Of a stretch of DNA of 10,583 bases, positions 1,976-10,583 are shown piece by piece; the stretch's first letter is position 1; each line of letters starts with the position of its first letter. This DNA comes from Coleofasciculus sp. B1-GNL1-01 (lineage in GTDB: Bacteria > Cyanobacteriota > Cyanobacteriia > Cyanobacteriales > Coleofasciculaceae), in NCBI GenBank assembly GCA_040220235.1, contig JAVJTO010000117.1. One strand, written 5' to 3'. Under the pieces are notes generated by a model. It saw only the letters and a list, made by a program, of their open reading frames with translations. It searched no databases and was not told the origin of the DNA. The translations under genes were made by a program, and so were the position numbers.

Positions 1976-3787
1976 GTGAATATGGGTGTTAAATACCGTA
2001 AGTTTAGTTACCTGGCTTCTTGGATTATTCTCTTAGGACAATTGAACGCTGGTGAGGCATTAGCAGAAATTTCGTTTAGTGCAGATGACCTCAAAGATAT
2101 CGAAACGATAGCTGGCAACACGGAGGAATTGCCAGAGCAGCTTTTAGATATTGCCCAAGTATCTGACCCCAATCAGGATCGGTTTCCACAACCCTTACCT
2201 GAGCCTGAATTAACAGATCCACAGGAGGAAGAACCTGTCCTACCGCCGTCCGAAACTGAAACCGAGCCGATTCGTCCAGACGTTTCTGAAGCGGAAGTAG
2301 AAGTGACTGCGATTGAAGTCACTGGCAGTACGATTTACACCCCTGAAGATTGGCAGGAGTTCACACAACCTTTAGAAGGGCGAACGGTAACAGTAACGGA
2401 ATTGAGGGCTGCTGCTGATGCAATTACTCGCCTTTATCAAGACGAAGGCTATTTGACCTCACGGGCAATTTTACCCCAGCAAGAAGTTGTCGATGGTGTT
2501 GTCCAGATTCAAGTGATTGAAGGCAGCCTGGAAGAGATTCAAATTGAAGGAAATCAACGAGTTAAGTCTGATTACATTAGTAGTCGAGTGAGGTTGGGTG
2601 TTGATACTCCCCTCAATGCTTTTAAACTTGAAGATCAACTCCGCCTGCTGCGTCAAAATCCTTTATTTGATACCCTCAGTGCGACTCTACAACCGGGGAC
2701 AGATTTGGGACAAAGTATTTTAGCTATTGAAGTGGATGAGGCAAATCCGTTCTATGGATTTGCCAGCTTCGACAACTACTCGCCTCCGAGCCTGGGGTCA
2801 GAGCGGTTCGGAATAGGCGCAGGCTACCGGAACCTGACGGGGTATGGTGATAATCTCTTTGCGTCATACTACGTGAGTACGACGGGAGGTTCTGATTTAA
2901 TTGATGCCTTCTATCAAATCCCTGTTAATCCCATGGAAGGCACGATTCAACTACGCACCCAATTCAACTGGACTGAAATCACGGAAGATCCCTTCGATGA
3001 TCTTGGCATTGAAGGTGATTCACAGTTCTATGAACTTAGCTTCCGACAACCCCTGATTCGTACTCCAACAGAAGAGTTTGCGCTTTCCCTCGCATTTAGC
3101 TTTGAAGATGGTCAGACCTTTACATTCGATGATATTCCTACACCCTTTGGTTTTGGACCCGATGAAGATGGTGTGAGTCGTACTAGCGTGTTCAGATTTG
3201 GGCAGGATTATATTCGCCGTGATGCTAACGGTGCCTGGATACTACGCTCTTTGTTCAATATTGGCACCACTCTATTTGATGCTACGTCTAATCCAGAGCC
3301 AATTCCAGATAGCGCTTTCTTTAGCTGGAATGGTCAGGTGCAAAGAGTGCAGCGTTTAAGTGACAATCATACGCTTGTTACTCAAGCGAGCGTTCAGTTA
3401 ACCCCTGATCCTTTATTACCGTCTGAACAGTTTGTTATTGGTGGATTTTACTCAGTCAGAGGGTATCGAGAAAGCGCCCGTAATGGTGATAACGGCTTGC
3501 GTCTTTCGGTAGAGGATAGAATTACCCTATCTCGCAATGATAGAGGAGAGTCAATTCTTCTGTTAATTCCATTTGCCGACATAGGGTATGTCTGGAACCA
3601 AGGTGACAATCCTAATGATTTACCCGACCAAAAATTTCTAGCCAGTATTGGTTCGGGTATTCTTTACGAACCCGTAAGAAATCTGAACCTCAGATTAGAT
3701 TATGGTTTGCCGTTAGTTGATTTAGACGATCGCGGCGATAATCTTCAAGACGATGGGTTTCATTTTAGCGTTAATTACCAATTCTGA
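1976..3787 (+). CDS. ShlB/FhaC/HecB-family two-partner secretion outer-membrane transporter (TpsB)
   Basis: Signal peptide and Pro/Glu-rich linker. POTRA domains (IEVTGST...ITRLYQDEGYLTSRA...GVVQIQVIEG). DNYSPPSLG barrel start, conserved loop motif IGG..SVRGY, and C-terminal Phe (FSVNYQF). Alternative ATG start at 1982. Confidence 0.95.
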   Translation: MNMGVKYRKFSYLASWIILLGQLNAGEALAEISFSADDLKDIETIAGNTEELPEQLLDIAQVSDPNQDRFPQPLPEPELTDPQEEEPVLPPSETETEPIRPDVSEAEVEVTAIEVTGSTIYTPEDWQEFTQPLEGRTVTVTELRAAADAITRLYQDEGYLTSRAILPQQEVVDGVVQIQVIEGSLEEIQIEGNQRVKSDYISSRVRLGVDTPLNAFKLEDQLRLLRQNPLFDTLSATLQPGTDLGQSILAIEVDEANPFYGFASFDNYSPPSLGSERFGIGAGYRNLTGYGDNLFASYYVSTTGGSDLIDAFYQIPVNPMEGTIQLRTQFNWTEITEDPFDDLGIEGDSQFYELSFRQPLIRTPTEEFALSLAFSFEDGQTFTFDDIPTPFGFGPDEDGVSRTSVFRFGQDYIRRDANGAWILRSLFNIGTTLFDATSNPEPIPDSAFFSWNGQVQRVQRLSDNHTLVTQASVQLTPDPLLPSEQFVIGGFYSVRGYRESARNGDNGLRLSVEDRITLSRNDRGESILLLIPFADIGYVWNQGDNPNDLPDQKFLASIGSGILYEPVRNLNLRLDYGLPLVDLDDRGDNLQDDGFHFSVNYQF

Positions 3788-4181: not shown

Positions 4182-4799
4182 ATGTTTTCCTCTTTCAACC
4201 CAGACAACCACATTTTTCAATCATCCCAGTTTCAACAGGTAATTCAAAACGCTGTAGACTTTCTCCTCTCCACACCTGTTCAACCCTTACCGCCATCAGA
4301 GACATTTACAGGTGCAGGACTTTACCTCCTGTACTACACAGGTAATTTTCCACCCTATAGTGCGATCGCGCAAGCGAACAGCCATAACGTTTCCACACCA
4401 ATTTATGCGGGAAAAGCCGTTCCGAGTGGTTGGCGACAAGCCCGCACCCCATCTAAAAAAATAGCGACTCTTTATCGTCGTTTAAGCGAACATGCAACCA
4501 GTATCCGAGCAGCACAGAACCTCAACTTAACAGATTTCTCATGTCGCTTTGTTATTCTAACTGACGATGAGAGTAGTATGATTCCTGCGGTTGAAGCAGC
4601 ACTAATTCGTCGATATCAACCCCTATGGAATAGTGTTATCGATGGCTTCGGAAATCATGATCCAGGGATTAACCGTTATGGACAACTCCTGGCTGAATGG
4701 GACACCTTGCACCCGGGTCGAAGTTGGGAAAGAAAATGGCAAGGTCAGCGTCCTCATTATGAACAACTAATCGAAAAGATTCAAAACTATTTCGGCTGA
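4182..4799 (+). CDS. Eco29kI-family GIY-YIG type II restriction endonuclease
   Basis: FTGAGLYLLYYTG...PIYAGKAVP GIY-YIG motifs, LYRRLSEH (conserved Arg), VEAALI (catalytic Glu), PLWN..IDGFGNHDPG..R and WDTLHPGR. All are hallmarks of the Eco29kI/Cfr42I/MraI family. 205 aa. Confidence 0.92.
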   Translation: MFSSFNPDNHIFQSSQFQQVIQNAVDFLLSTPVQPLPPSETFTGAGLYLLYYTGNFPPYSAIAQANSHNVSTPIYAGKAVPSGWRQARTPSKKIATLYRRLSEHATSIRAAQNLNLTDFSCRFVILTDDESSMIPAVEAALIRRYQPLWNSVIDGFGNHDPGINRYGQLLAEWDTLHPGRSWERKWQGQRPHYEQLIEKIQNYFG

Positions 4800-6130
4800 C
4801 GCAACTCAACTACCGATTCGTATAATCGACAAACTTTATCCGCCTTGGCAACCCGCACCTTTGATTGAATAATACTATTTCCCACACGAGTATCTCGTGG
4901 CGTGTTTATACTGACCAGATCAAGACCCGATTGTTCAGCAATTTGACCTAAATAGACATCGGTTGTAAACATGACTCCCTGCAAAATACTATTTCCAATC
5001 ACCACAAATGCTGAAGCCCTCGACTTGAGAACGTATCGAAGTCCCTGAACAAAACGATAACAATCATTAAAATAAGATGCAGCATAGTTAGCCCATCCAT
5101 TGCCACCATAGATACCTCGCTGAGTATTGACTGTACGCAGGTAATCAATTTTTTCAATAAGTTCTGCTGGTGGATTGGGAAAAATTAAATTCACCTGATC
5201 TTGAACTCTCACAGTTTGCCAATATTTGCCAAAATTCTGCTGTTCCAAAATCTTAGTATCATCAGGCTTATTGACAAACCCTAGCCAATAGAGATGGGGG
5301 CGGGTATTGCGGATGTAATGGTAATTATTTAGATAAGGAGGTGATGTAACTACCAGATCGACTGAATTCGGTTTAAGATACTGTTGGTAATCAAAAAATG
5401 AGGCATTTAAAATCTTGTTTTTGAATGAATGACGGGGTAAATTCCGCAAAAGCCATTTTAGATCACAAGTCATCTGATTAAGCTTTTCTGTGATGACTTC
5501 AAAAACGGCAAAATCCGCAATATTCCTTTTCCCTGCTGCTTTTCTGGTTCCTAAGCTAGGTTCATAGGAATAATTCGAGTAATGAACCATCGTTGACGCA
5601 AACGCCAATCTAAAAATCTCTTGAATCTTCTCATCCTCCACAGAATTAATAAAATCCTGAACAATCAGGACTTTCTCTAACACAGTTGGACTATAGAATG
5701 CTTGGCGGGTTCGGAATCCCGATGGTGGCTGACTCATCGGCAAATATTCACTCGTCATGCTATGGTCATAAAACCTTTGGAATCGTGTTATCTCTCTTTG
5801 AATATCTTCTGGATTAAGTTGATACGCATTGACTTTAACTCGACAAGCCAAAGCCGCGTAGGGATTAATCTCAAAACCAACACTATCATGTCCGATTAAT
5901 GCTGATTCAACCAGGGTTGTACCCACACCTGCGAAGGGATCAATAACCGTTCCCGGTTGAGGAAGCTTAGTTTCTACCACATCTCGCACAAAAGAACTGG
6001 AAAAGCCAGCAATCCAAGGTATCCACCGATGCACAGGTAAAAGCTTGTTGCTAGCAAAACTCGGATCACTGAACACCGATTTATCTTTGGCTTTCGAGGT
6101 TTGAGTCTCTGAAAAAAGTGACAGTTGCAT
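4787..6130 (-). CDS. Amino-DNA methyltransferase, probably N4-cytosine, alpha-type motif order
   Basis: N-terminal HRW...AGFS, SAM-binding motif I VIDPFAGVGTT, and later catalytic motif IV DLVVTSPPY. Convergent with the endonuclease gene and overlaps it by 13 bp. Confidence 0.9.
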   Translation of the reverse strand: MQLSLFSETQTSKAKDKSVFSDPSFASNKLLPVHRWIPWIAGFSSSFVRDVVETKLPQPGTVIDPFAGVGTTLVESALIGHDSVGFEINPYAALACRVKVNAYQLNPEDIQREITRFQRFYDHSMTSEYLPMSQPPSGFRTRQAFYSPTVLEKVLIVQDFINSVEDEKIQEIFRLAFASTMVHYSNYSYEPSLGTRKAAGKRNIADFAVFEVITEKLNQMTCDLKWLLRNLPRHSFKNKILNASFFDYQQYLKPNSVDLVVTSPPYLNNYHYIRNTRPHLYWLGFVNKPDDTKILEQQNFGKYWQTVRVQDQVNLIFPNPPAELIEKIDYLRTVNTQRGIYGGNGWANYAASYFNDCYRFVQGLRYVLKSRASAFVVIGNSILQGVMFTTDVYLGQIAEQSGLDLVSINTPRDTRVGNSIIQSKVRVAKADKVCRLYESVVELRQPK

Positions 6131-9624: not shown

Positions 9625-9664
9625 ACTTATAATCTTATGTCATTGGTGAGTAGGGAAATTCTCC

Positions 9665-9706
9665 CTTGTCCTCCCCAGCTTCCCCAGCTCCCCCTGCTTC
9701 CCCATC
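9665..9706 (+). repeat. Degenerate 9-bp tandem repeat
   Basis: CTCCCCAGC / TTCCCCAGC / TCCCCCTGC / TTCCCCATC. Confidence 0.8.
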
Positions 9707-9760
9707 GCTTTACCTCGTGGGACTCCGACCTCAACGAAGTAGGTCGGAGGGGGATAGAGG
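9706..9760 (-). mobile_element. Probable 3' end with subterminal hairpin of the IS200/IS605-superfamily RRXRR element
   Basis: Perfect 9-bp stem CTCCGACCT-N9-AGGTCGGAG (9723-9749) just after the nuclease stop codon, followed by an abrupt switch to the host 9-mer repeat at ~9706. Confidence 0.6.
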
Positions 9761-10324
9761 TCAAACCGCGCCACTCAACGTGGTAAGGGTTGACAACCCA
9801 ACTGTTGACACCAGTCCGGTGTTTTGTTGTAACAATTGGACTTTGTTGGCGGTAAACCTCCCTATTCGCTTCCAGTTAGCGTCACTGACGGAAACTTGGG
9901 TCTTAGTATCACCAGAAACGTAACCGTAGTGGGTAACTCCAGCTTTAGCTGCTTTGACATAATCACCTTTCCTAAACCCGTGGCGGGTAACTGTGCCGCC
10001 ATAGTCGCGCCGTTTCCCTCCCTTGCTGGGGATCATTAGGTGTAATTGACGGCGACAAATTGGGGGACGGTGAATCACTGCAAACTGGCACGGTGTTACC
10101 GCAATAGACCCCAACCAAGTACCGCTTCTACCCTTAATCTGGCGATACCGCATAAATTGGGAGGCGGCTAGGCAGATCCCATCAACGGCATGGGCGGCGG
10201 GTGAGGACTCAGCTTTATTCTTGGACTTGGGTAAGCCAAGGTATTGCCGCAAGGTTGAAGTGTACCATCCCTCTTGGGTGTGGACGGTGTAACCTGCTTG
10301 TTCTAACTGCTCAATCTGCCAATA
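9761..10324 (-). CDS. 3' exon (187 aa) of an RRXRR-domain IsrB/IscB-like OMEGA nuclease interrupted by a group II intron
   Basis: YWQIEQL...GWYTSTLRQYLGLPKSKNKA..SP.AHAVDG (RuvC-III H..D), RRQLH....SKGG.R..YGG, and GFRKGDYV.A.KAG....GYVSG.T..QVSVSDANWKRIG.FT..KV.LL...TGL. These are typical of cyanobacterial RRXRR proteins. Similarity starts exactly at the intron 3' end. Confidence 0.85.
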   Translation of the reverse strand, partial: YWQIEQLEQAGYTVHTQEGWYTSTLRQYLGLPKSKNKAESSPAAHAVDGICLAASQFMRYRQIKGRSGTWLGSIAVTPCQFAVIHRPPICRRQLHLMIPSKGGKRRDYGGTVTRHGFRKGDYVKAAKAGVTHYGYVSGDTKTQVSVSDANWKRIGRFTANKVQLLQQNTGLVSTVGLSTLTTLSGAV

Positions 10325-10402
10325 GTTTGGGTCGGCGGGAGATATTGCTACCTCCCGTCTCCCTTTCAAAACCGTGCGTGACAGTTTCCCGTCACACGGC
10401 TC
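10325..10402 (-). ncRNA. Group II intron catalytic domain V and branch-site domain VI
   Basis: DV is GAGCCGTGTGACGGGAAACTGTCACGCACGGTTT (AGC triad, GAAA loop). DVI is GGGAGACGGGAGGTA-GCAA-TATCTCCCGCCGACCC. The candidate bulged A lies 8 nt before the terminal AC. Confidence 0.93.
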
Positions 10403-10457
10403 CTCAGTGACTTGACCCTTGTCATGGGCACCTCTTCCCTCGGTTAGGGTTAGGCGG

Positions 10458-10583
10458 TTAGAACGGGTTATCATCCAAATACCTCGCTAACTCTTCATGT
10501 GCCAACTGCCTCTTTTGCCTCAAGGCATCCATAGCAGTTTTTTGGTCGTGGCAATGTCTGTGCAGTAGCTGACGGTTGCTCAA
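10458..10583 (-). CDS. ltrA: C-terminus (HNH endonuclease end) of a group II intron reverse transcriptase/maturase; partial, not in the ORF track
   Basis: Translates LSNRQLLHRHCHDQKTAMDALRQKRQLAHEELARYLDDNPF*. N.QLLHRHCHD.KT is the typical En-domain end of cyanobacterial intron-encoded proteins. Confidence 0.9.
   Translation of the reverse strand: MSNRQLLHRHCHDQKTAMDALRQKRQLAHEELARYLDDNPF

Follow-up and report, generated by a model that had tools for sequence, protein, structure and literature searches.

The closest precedent for the locus described here is found in the TnpB genes of the same genus. Kapitonov, Makarova and Koonin (2016, J Bacteriol, PMC4810608) described in their Supplemental Fig. 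9 a 2511-bp group II intron, encoding a reverse transcriptase (RT)-maturase-HNH protein, within the IS605/IS605B TnpB genes of Coleofasciculus chthonoplastes PCC 7420. This intron occupies one codon boundary in two TnpB genes of about 60% identity, and a third copy of the gene is empty. The same paper proposed a group II intron as the source of the HNH domain found in IscB and Cas9. We analyzed a stretch of 10,583 nucleotides of Coleofasciculus sp. B1-GNL1-01 (hereafter the window), which corresponds to the entire contig C117 of a 172-contig genome (G000) and stops inside a group II intron that splits an isrB gene. IsrB and IscB are transposon-borne ancestors of Cas9 and are under development as compact genome editors. 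We give a probability of about 80% to the reading that this locus is a composite element, in which an ISC transposon with its omegaRNA and isrB carries, within isrB, a retromobile intron that spreads by retrohoming and is spliced out. In the literature that we covered, which left out the second supplementary file of the 2016 paper, we found no description of a group II intron in an IsrB or IscB gene.

The resemblance to the TnpB introns is extensive. The intron occurs in the same genus, Coleofasciculus, is about 2.5 kb long and encodes an RT-maturase-HNH protein of about 600 aa; it lies in sense orientation, between codons, in the gene of an RNA-guided nuclease of the IS200/IS605 superfamily; and near-identical copies occupy the same position in diverged genes, with empty copies alongside (PMC4810608). 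The host gene is different, being TnpB (the ancestor of Cas12) there and IsrB/IscB1 (of the Cas9 lineage) here, and so is the target, which reads GARCAACAR/AACTSTTA there and ATGGTNGGNCAR/NNN here (a slash marks the insertion point throughout). The available portions of that paper showed no intron in an IscB1/IsrB gene, whereas the intron studied here adjoins the position of the HNH linker in such a gene. The host gene is in turn comparable with the DtIsrB-omegaRNA nickase (Hirano et al. 2022, Nature, PMC9581776, PDB 8DMB): an intron-less paralog in G000 is similar to it over its full length, and the two share, as far as the available portions of that paper describe them, the PLMP motif, the arginine-rich bridge helix, RuvC-I, II and III, the domain interacting with the target-adjacent motif (TAM-interacting, TI), the lack of HNH and, as a candidate in the present case, a structured RNA directly upstream. 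Unlike DtIsrB, the gene described here is split by an intron and known from its sequence alone, and its omegaRNA-like matches score 27-41 bits compared with 83.

Two further systems invite comparison. In IStrons (Zedaveinyte et al. 2023, 10.1101/2023.11.20.567912), an intron and a nuclease of the obligate mobile element-guided activity (OMEGA) type also share one transcript, and interference is possible between splicing and the production of guide RNA or nuclease. However, a group I intron there wraps a whole IS605/IS607-TnpB transposon and makes its insertions harmless to host genes, according to the available portions of that report, whereas here a group II retro-intron interrupts the open reading frame (ORF) of the nuclease and is a parasite in its own right, equipped with a mobility protein and not known to have an RNA segment in common with the host element. 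Since the ribozyme is of group II and sits within the nuclease ORF, we rejected the identification of the locus as an IStron. As for the intron of PDB 6ME0, which we take to be the ribonucleoprotein of a T.el4h-type IIB intron from Thermosynechococcus, the maturase-RT is similar, and the host and the target site are different.

We located the two halves of the interrupted gene on different contigs. The 3' half is exon 2 in the window, an unbroken frame (10324 down to 9761) that retains the HAVD motif of RuvC-III, as the preliminary description of the window had noted. A Pfam search of this exon returned no match, and its sole match in PDB is IsrB 8DMB (E 1.2e-14; exon residues 79-171 against chain residues 396-491), which covers the TI region and places a C-terminal TI domain in the exon. 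Exon 2 can be aligned over its full length with intron-less paralogs and is 82% identical to residues 182-365 of one of them, the 373-aa protein encoded at C29:11818-12936 (hereafter C29). The 5' half is found at C74:26827-27369. It consists of 181 codons with a Pfam RRXRR match (E 1.1e-45), reads ..GEPLMPAKASRVRRW.. and ..RRGRRGRR.., and contains the PLMP motif, GIDPG (RuvC-I), the arginine-rich bridge helix and VVVEV (RuvC-II). The preliminary description had thus been right to expect a 5' exon with PLMP and RRXRR beyond the 5' end of the intron, and only its label of RRXRR nuclease exon for the window was misplaced, as the RRXRR motif is absent from exon 2 and located in exon 1, on the other contig. 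By alignment with the paralogs and with 8DMB, the predicted catalytic D/E/HxxD residues of RuvC are split by the intron, with GIDPG and VVVEV in exon 1 and HAVDG in exon 2.

When joined, the two exons are in frame (...ATGGTCGGTCAG/TATTGGCAG, with ATG GTC GGT CAG/TAT TGG CAG read as MVGQ/YWQIEQ) and encode a product of 368 residues. The intron is located exactly between codons 181 and 182, after the conserved motif GFSPAMVGQ. The intron-less C29 reads MVGQHWQ at this point, with CAT (His) in place of the TAT (Tyr) of the window, and the junction residue is in general variable among paralogs (H, R, N, D, K or G). Neither exon is decayed, as the ratio of nonsynonymous to synonymous substitution rates (Ka/Ks) against the paralogs is 0.07-0.13 for both; a decayed 5' exon and an out-of-frame junction, two of the outcomes by which the preliminary description proposed to judge itself, were therefore not observed.

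The preliminary description had also guessed that the nuclease is an IsrB without HNH domain, and our comparisons bear this out. C29 matches DtIsrB 8DMB over residues 2-352 (E 1.3e-40), while IscB structures match only its N-terminal approximately 115 residues. Alignment with four IscB proteins of G000 revealed no HNH domain in the host protein, and the approximately 65 residues between the E of RuvC-II and the HxxD of RuvC-III contain no Cys/His motif; in the IscB of contig C47, used for comparison, Pfam places HNH/HNH_5 at residues 198-249. We therefore rejected an HNH-containing IscB, which should carry an HNH block between RuvC-II and RuvC-III. Judged by these alignments, the host gene is an HNH-less IsrB. 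G000 contains both IscB genes and a large IsrB family.

The window holds the 3' end of the intron, in the sense orientation relative to isrB. The Rfam model Intron_gpII (RF00029) matches 10404..10325 over its full length (model positions 1-77; 58.9 bits, E 8.4e-10, gathering score 40), the D5 model (RF04357) matches 10405..10365 with 53 bits, and we infer, reading the sequence by eye, a bulged branch A in domain VI, 7 nt before the 3' splice site. The junction ...GACCCAAAC/TATTGGCAG falls between 10325 and 10324. The boundaries are canonical, with GTGCG following exon 1 on both C74 and C14 and AAAC preceding exon 2. Upstream of domain V, the frame 10583..10461 reads ..SNRQLLHRHCHDQKTAMDAL..DDNPF, including ..LLHRHCHDQKT.., and ends with a stop at 10460-10458. 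The encoded 41-aa tail is identical at 38 of 41 positions to residues 556-596 of a 596-aa RT-GIIM-HNH protein of a congener, or in effect at 39 of 41, the first codon having been read as M by the tool. On this tail alone, Pfam HNH reaches 16.6 bits, under its cut-off of 21.4. The HNH tail, domains V and VI, the junction and the 187-aa exon reported by the preliminary description were all found where it had placed them, on the minus strand.

The interior of the intron is absent from every contig of G000. A second 3' end of the intron occurs in the same genome (C134:1-259), with one base different from the window, and the assembly broke because the genome carries two near-identical copies of the intron. 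The complete structure is assembled in a congener, at G004:C194, where a HEARO-like RNA precedes an isrB gene whose two exons are separated by an intron of 2522 nt. The ends of this intron are 99.3% and 97.3% identical to those of G000. Its protein, of 596 aa, contains the RVT_N, RVT_1 (with YADD), GIIM and HNH domains and matches the maturase-RT of PDB 6ME0 over residues 12-575 (E 4.5e-105). By this protein similarity, to which the class assignment is confined, the intron probably belongs to the IIB/chloroplast-like class. In the G004:C194 intron we could recognize, by complementarity alone, a candidate exon-binding site 2 (EBS2; ACCATG, nt 314) for CATGGT at exon positions -13 to -8, and a candidate EBS1 (TTGACC, nt 352/358) for GGTCAA at exon positions -6 to -1.

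To find the missing half of the gene in G000, we searched its contigs with the C29 paralog (tblastn). The search returned exactly two exon-1 pieces covering residues 1-181 (C74:26827-27369 and C14:2527-3069) and exactly two exon-2 pieces (in the window and on C134). Both 5' junctions (between 27369 and 27370 of C74 and between 3069 and 3070 of C14) continue with GTGCG and, up to the contig end, the same 138 bases, and both exon-2 pieces are preceded by the same 259 bases with one difference. The pairing of the halves could be read from the empty sites of congeners. In all seven pth loci examined (L020-L026, from seven congeners), the flank of the window and the flank of C74 are adjacent or separated by short repeats: homology to the window up to approximately 9706 adjoins DNA 87-96% identical to C74 up to 26600, and the empty site reads ...CCCCATC/TCACTACTT... 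Because of this synteny, C74 and the window belong to one insertion, which lies upstream of pth and consists of C74:26601-27369, the intron and window positions 10324-9707. The element inserted without target duplication, and its boundary is ambiguous by one G. In addition, the sequencing run X1 yielded a 1045-nt contig that differs from window positions 9875-10324 at 9 of 450 nt and in which position 10324 is directly followed by 30 letters that match the end of exon 1 on C74 without a difference. This joined contig is a precise intron-less form, and may be either an intron-less allele or the spliced transcript of a near relative. The features of the window and the related intron positions are collected in Table 1.

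Table 1. Features at the right end of the window, intron junctions at the shared codon boundary, and introns upstream of other IsrB genes
Feature	Position	Strand	Remarks
Group II intron, last 259 nt of ~2.5 kb	10325..10583	-	97% identity to the 3' end of the G004:C194 intron
C-terminus of intron protein, 41 codons + stop (end of HNH/En domain)	10458..10583	-	RT-maturase-HNH protein
Domains V + VI, ending ...GACCCAAAC	10325..10404	-	Rfam RF00029
isrB exon 2, 187 codons + stop: RuvC-III (HAVD), WED, TAM-interacting domain	9761..10324	-	Open frame
Non-coding 3' end of ISC/IsrB transposon	9707..9760	-	Hairpin with 9-bp stem, 9723-9749
Flank adjoining element, CCCCATC	9700..9706		Empty-site comparison with congeners
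5' junctions, G000	C74, C14
3' junctions, G000	C117, C134
5' junctions, G004	C194, C5
3' junctions, G004	C194, C198, C175
5' junctions, G007	C1381, C280
3' junctions, G007	C1120
Upstream intron, L091	~3196-3311
Upstream intron, L092	3337-3414
Upstream intron, L095	3337-3414
Upstream intron, L132	859-937

All features listed for the right end of the window lie on the minus strand. Elsewhere in the window, at 4182-6130, two large ORFs of 205 aa (plus strand) and 447 aa (minus strand) overlap tail to tail.

The same codon boundary is occupied repeatedly. We detected intron junctions at this position in three of the nine genomes of the genus, for a total of six 5' and six 3' junctions. The first codon of exon 2 at the occupied sites is TAT, AAT or AAA, and a loose end in the RNA run X4 adds a fourth context, CGA CAG ATG.. 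(RQMLKWL). In some cases, the occupied genes share no more than 52-62% exon identity with C29. Within G000, the target motif SP(A/V)M(V/T)GQ is present in 14 genes or gene fragments of the IsrB family, two of which are occupied. Both the intron-less alleles and the independent insertions at the same site that the preliminary description had proposed to look for thus exist. Between the two occupied genes of G000, the exons show a synonymous divergence (dS) of 0.9-1.06 and a Ka/Ks of 0.07-0.13, and the ends of the introns differ at one of 397 bases. As the exons have diverged while the intron ends are near-identical, the genes are old and under selection, and the arrival of the intron in them was recent and happened more than once. 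On sequence comparison, this pattern points to recent site-specific homing and is the signature expected of retrohoming.

We also asked how far the intron lineage is tied to IsrB. Among 30 loci with relatives of the intron in the family (a tally that includes genome G044, flagged as unpublished and used only for these counts), IsrB flanks occur only at G004:C194. A lineage specific for IsrB can be rejected, because an intron of another genus (G042:C436, L036) is 94% identical and has unrelated flanks (..GGAGAGACAA/intron/AACATGG..); it differs from the lineage of the window mainly in the first approximately 94 nt. A metagenome scan with a 15-mer from the 3' end of the intron returned at least 120 loci. 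None of the 120 listed matches the intron ends or IsrB, and these loci are therefore chance matches.

These observations can be accommodated in the following sequence of events. An ISC-type transposon of the IS200/IS605 superfamily, with a HEARO-like omegaRNA and isrB, would have inserted upstream of pth, and the approximately 2.5-kb intron with its RT-maturase-HNH protein would then have entered isrB between codons 181 and 182. In retrohoming, the intron RNA would reverse-splice into DNA that pairs with EBS1 and EBS2, the HNH domain would cut the other DNA strand and the RT would copy the intron in. A transcript starting at the omegaRNA or before it would span both exons and the intron between them. 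The intron protein would be translated and aid splicing, the ligated mRNA would yield the 368-aa IsrB with Tyr at the junction, and the excised ribonucleoprotein could invade further IsrB genes. The insertion would be largely silent, with the output of IsrB capped by the efficiency of splicing, and the intron would gain many homing sites as well as a ride on a DNA transposon. Bacterial group II introns are said, with reference to Dai and Zimmerly, to favour other mobile DNA as homes. IsrB would be made only if the intron splices out, and one selfish element would be nested in another. That splicing restores a working isrB gene is a separate claim, which on the sequence features we consider somewhat better than an even bet; that the intron is an evolved gate on the OMEGA system is considerably less probable than this.

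Several observations weigh against the composite, splicing element. Twelve of the 14 target sites in G000 are empty, including that of C29 with nearly identical target DNA, and homing is therefore either recent or inefficient. The intron protein of G000 is assembled only for its last 41 residues, and an intact RT in the copy of the window is assumed from the 97-99%-identical copy of the congener; a second basis for this assumption is that the 259 intron nt of the window show no differences from contigs of the runs X3 and X19. The region upstream of exon 1 on C74 has no HEARO match at E<=1, and its support comes only from the alignment with paralogs. The joined contig of X1, from a library of either DNA or RNA, may be an intron-less allele instead of a spliced transcript. 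Finally, no spliced joint is listed among the contigs of the RNA libraries X3 and X4 on the window, which comprise intron sequence along with small fragments at the 3' junction; such libraries can also contain DNA.

The main rival explanation is that of plain insertional inactivation, in which splicing is poor or the host element is not expressed, and the interrupted isrB genes are dead copies with exons that look undamaged only because the insertion is very recent. With one difference in 397 bases between intron copies in otherwise old exons, there has been too little time for decay to become visible, and no spliced product was seen in the runs compared. None of the sequencing runs contained at least half of the words of the window, and we compared four of them with it (X1, X3, X4 and X19); among their listed joints and loose ends, none proves spliced RNA. 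The metatranscriptome X3 contains a contig of exactly 2522 nt, the size of the intron, that ends at 10325, and X4 contains a 498-nt contig that starts at 10325; both are without differences over the 259 nt, and the summed depth of these intron contigs (approximately 680) is above that of the short exon pieces beside them. Since an excised intron and a repeat-bounded contig would both explain these contigs, they are a weak hint at most. Most of exon 2 is uncovered in X3, X4 and X19, as is the intron beyond domain V in X1, and we draw nothing from these gaps. That some insertions may be defective is shown by the non-canonical CTGCG end of another intron in an IsrB paralog of G000, on contig C34. 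Against inactivation speak the canonical GTGCG...AC ends, the high score of domains V and VI, the candidate pairing between exon-binding and intron-binding sites and the complete protein of the congener, as well as the sense orientation, as splicing requires, and the persistence of the same intron in three genomes and several IsrB backgrounds. We consider inactivation by a recent insertion unlikely, with a chance that still deserves to be taken seriously.

A different mode of spread, by homologous recombination or gene conversion between paralogous transposons rather than by retrohoming, is improbable as the main route. It would find support in the chimeric structure of G004:C194 (L031 2393-6296), where exon 1 is of the C29 type (90% identity) and exon 2 belongs to another subfamily, with 43-44% identity to C29 and to the exon of the window and with NWAISQMEK as in C6 and C24. 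Such a chimera is expected from recombination between two copies of the intron, and suggests that intron copies in different IsrB genes also recombine; the intron seems to be a hub at which halves of IsrB genes are reshuffled. Conversion tracts would, however, homogenize the DNA beside the intron, and the flanks of the occupied sites differ at synonymous positions up to the junction. Moreover, the exon sequences fit EBS1 and EBS2 of the intron, and the two modes of spread are not mutually exclusive.

It is very improbable that the window merely joins a 5'-truncated IsrB remnant, with no matching exon 1, to an intron end: the contig does end inside a repeat, so that the pairing of halves is unreadable from the assembly itself, but two 5' junctions match two 3' junctions in number, and the artefact is close to refuted by the empty-site synteny of the seven congeners, the X1 contig that joins a window-type exon 2 to a C74-type exon 1, and the fully assembled equivalent at G004:C194. 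We likewise rejected as hardly credible a separate gene for an N-terminally truncated RuvC-III/TI protein in the 237-codon ORF 9761..10474, which in G000 as well as in G004 extends without a stop over the 50 codons that precede the splice site. So many stop-free codons are expected by chance in about one of 10 cases by our estimate; the sequence in question belongs to the ribozyme, is conserved at the RNA level and returned nothing in a Pfam search; and with RuvC-I and RuvC-II missing, the RuvC-III half is unable to build an active site.

The preliminary description of the composite element had further called for an omegaRNA upstream of the gene, and this expectation was borne out in part. The 226 nt upstream of exon 1 on C74 align with the upstream regions of the paralogs, from the first base of the element (TTCAACAACCC...) to the ATG, and several of those regions are HEARO-like; C74 lacks a HEARO match of its own. 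Full-length HEARO alignments upstream of paralogous starts reach 40.9 bits for C14 (E 8e-6), 27.2 for C29 and 30.5 for G004, all below the gathering score of 83 bits, and no HEARO at the gathering score was found near any of these IsrB copies. Thirteen HEAROs above the threshold were found in G000, on contigs C47, C126, C6, C21, C120, C165, C122, C62, C63, C154, C145, C30 and C53. At least those of C47, C126, C122 and C165, the four that we aligned, precede intact genes for IscB-type proteins (427-444 aa) in which the alignment shows a block of HNH type, confirmed by Pfam for C47 only, and several others have no adjoining IscB ORF.

At the other end of the element, homology among the IsrB copies ceases at approximately 9698-9702, and the empty-site comparison sets the end at 9707 ±1 nt. 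The terminal hairpin (9723-9749) has a DNA folding energy of -12.4 kcal/mol (z -2.2), with 6 of 200 shuffled sequences folding as well, and the non-coding end (9707-9760) resembles the ISC1 terminus in the available portion of the supplement of Kapitonov et al. (PMC4810608). Short C-rich repeats (CCCCAGCT-like units), present at 9657-9716 of the window and on many contigs of G000, occur beside the element. Most of the 72 matches of the window in the genome are due to these repeats, and the number of units varies among the empty sites of congeners.

To assess how frequently group II introns enter IsrB loci, we surveyed 80 such loci from records with one genome per species. In 74 of them we found no group II intron within the IsrB gene or within approximately 210 nt upstream, and these are mostly uninterrupted full-length genes, with a few truncated fragments (L066, L113 and L139). 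Locus L073 starts inside the intron of the window; having the length and coordinates of a contig already tallied, it was not counted twice. A second coding site emerged from an IsrB paralog of G000 (C34; L011 5577-9312, minus strand), which is interrupted after GIDPGK.YS (residue ~68) by another group II intron. This intron is assembled in full (approximately 2569 nt) and encodes an RT-GIIM protein of 582 aa; its 5' end is the CTGCG mentioned above instead of GUGYG, and removing it leaves the two exons in frame. The same contig carries an uninterrupted, intact IsrB copy at a distance of 4 kb. This second site recurs in a distant genus: in Microseira wollei NIES-4236 (L135 768-4471), a HEARO-like RNA (45.8 bits) is followed by exon 1 (residues 1-65), an RT-encoding intron at the same coding site (residue 65/67) and exon 2 (residues 67-339). 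In four loci of other cyanobacteria (L091, L092, L095 and L132), a group II intron precedes the IsrB start codon, with 35-211 nt between its end and the codon. In L091 and L132, this intron directly adjoins the omegaRNA at its 5' edge, and in L092 and L095 omegaRNA homology is present on both sides of it, so that the guide-RNA gene itself appears to be split. In a further locus of G000 (L014, C45, 1188-1625), the distance from the end of a group II intron to a downstream cobalamin riboswitch of the same strand is 219 nt.

The insertion point invites a comparison with the proposed origin of the IscB HNH domain. In DtIsrB, the PLMP prolines are Pro17 and Pro20, and an "HNH linker" (residues 161-179) between RuvC-II and RuvC-III occupies the place of the HNH domain of Cas9; deletion of residues 161-174 abolished nicking, as stated in the available portions of the paper (PMC9581776). 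With the numbering of 8DMB anchored on the two PLMP prolines (offset 150), the intron site aligns between K181 and T182, two residues past the linker, and it aligns approximately 20 residues before the HNH CxxC of the IscB proteins of G000. The coincidence is suggestive and not significant, because the RuvC-II/III interval accounts for approximately one sixth of the protein and the second intron site lies elsewhere. The HNH frame of the intron ends 133 nt before the splice site, and the remainder of the intron is open in the frame of exon 2. Decay of the intron, with loss of the ribozyme and the RT and a change of frame, could fuse an HNH module to IsrB at its position in IscB. The HNH of the intron protein is 36% identical to that of IscB over 45 residues (pairwise E 6e-5), a similarity that is expected within Pfam HNH and is no evidence of descent. 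That this RT-HNH intron in an HNH-less IsrB represents, in a present-day genome, the kind of event from which IscB and Cas9 have been proposed to arise remains a long shot.

Taken together, RT-HNH group II introns have repeatedly made their home in IsrB genes of cyanobacteria, at two coding sites, and in other species introns occur at or in the omegaRNA region as well. While the 2016 proposal on the origin of HNH rested on TnpB introns, the introns described here are in the right gene family and one of them adjoins the right structural position, which makes the idea testable through HNH phylogenies and decayed intermediates. Gene callers overlook IsrB genes split by introns or predict them in truncated form, and short-read assemblies break at such genes, as in G000. 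In strains with such genes, production of the nickase would depend on splicing, which would add a layer of control and a conflict between selfish elements.

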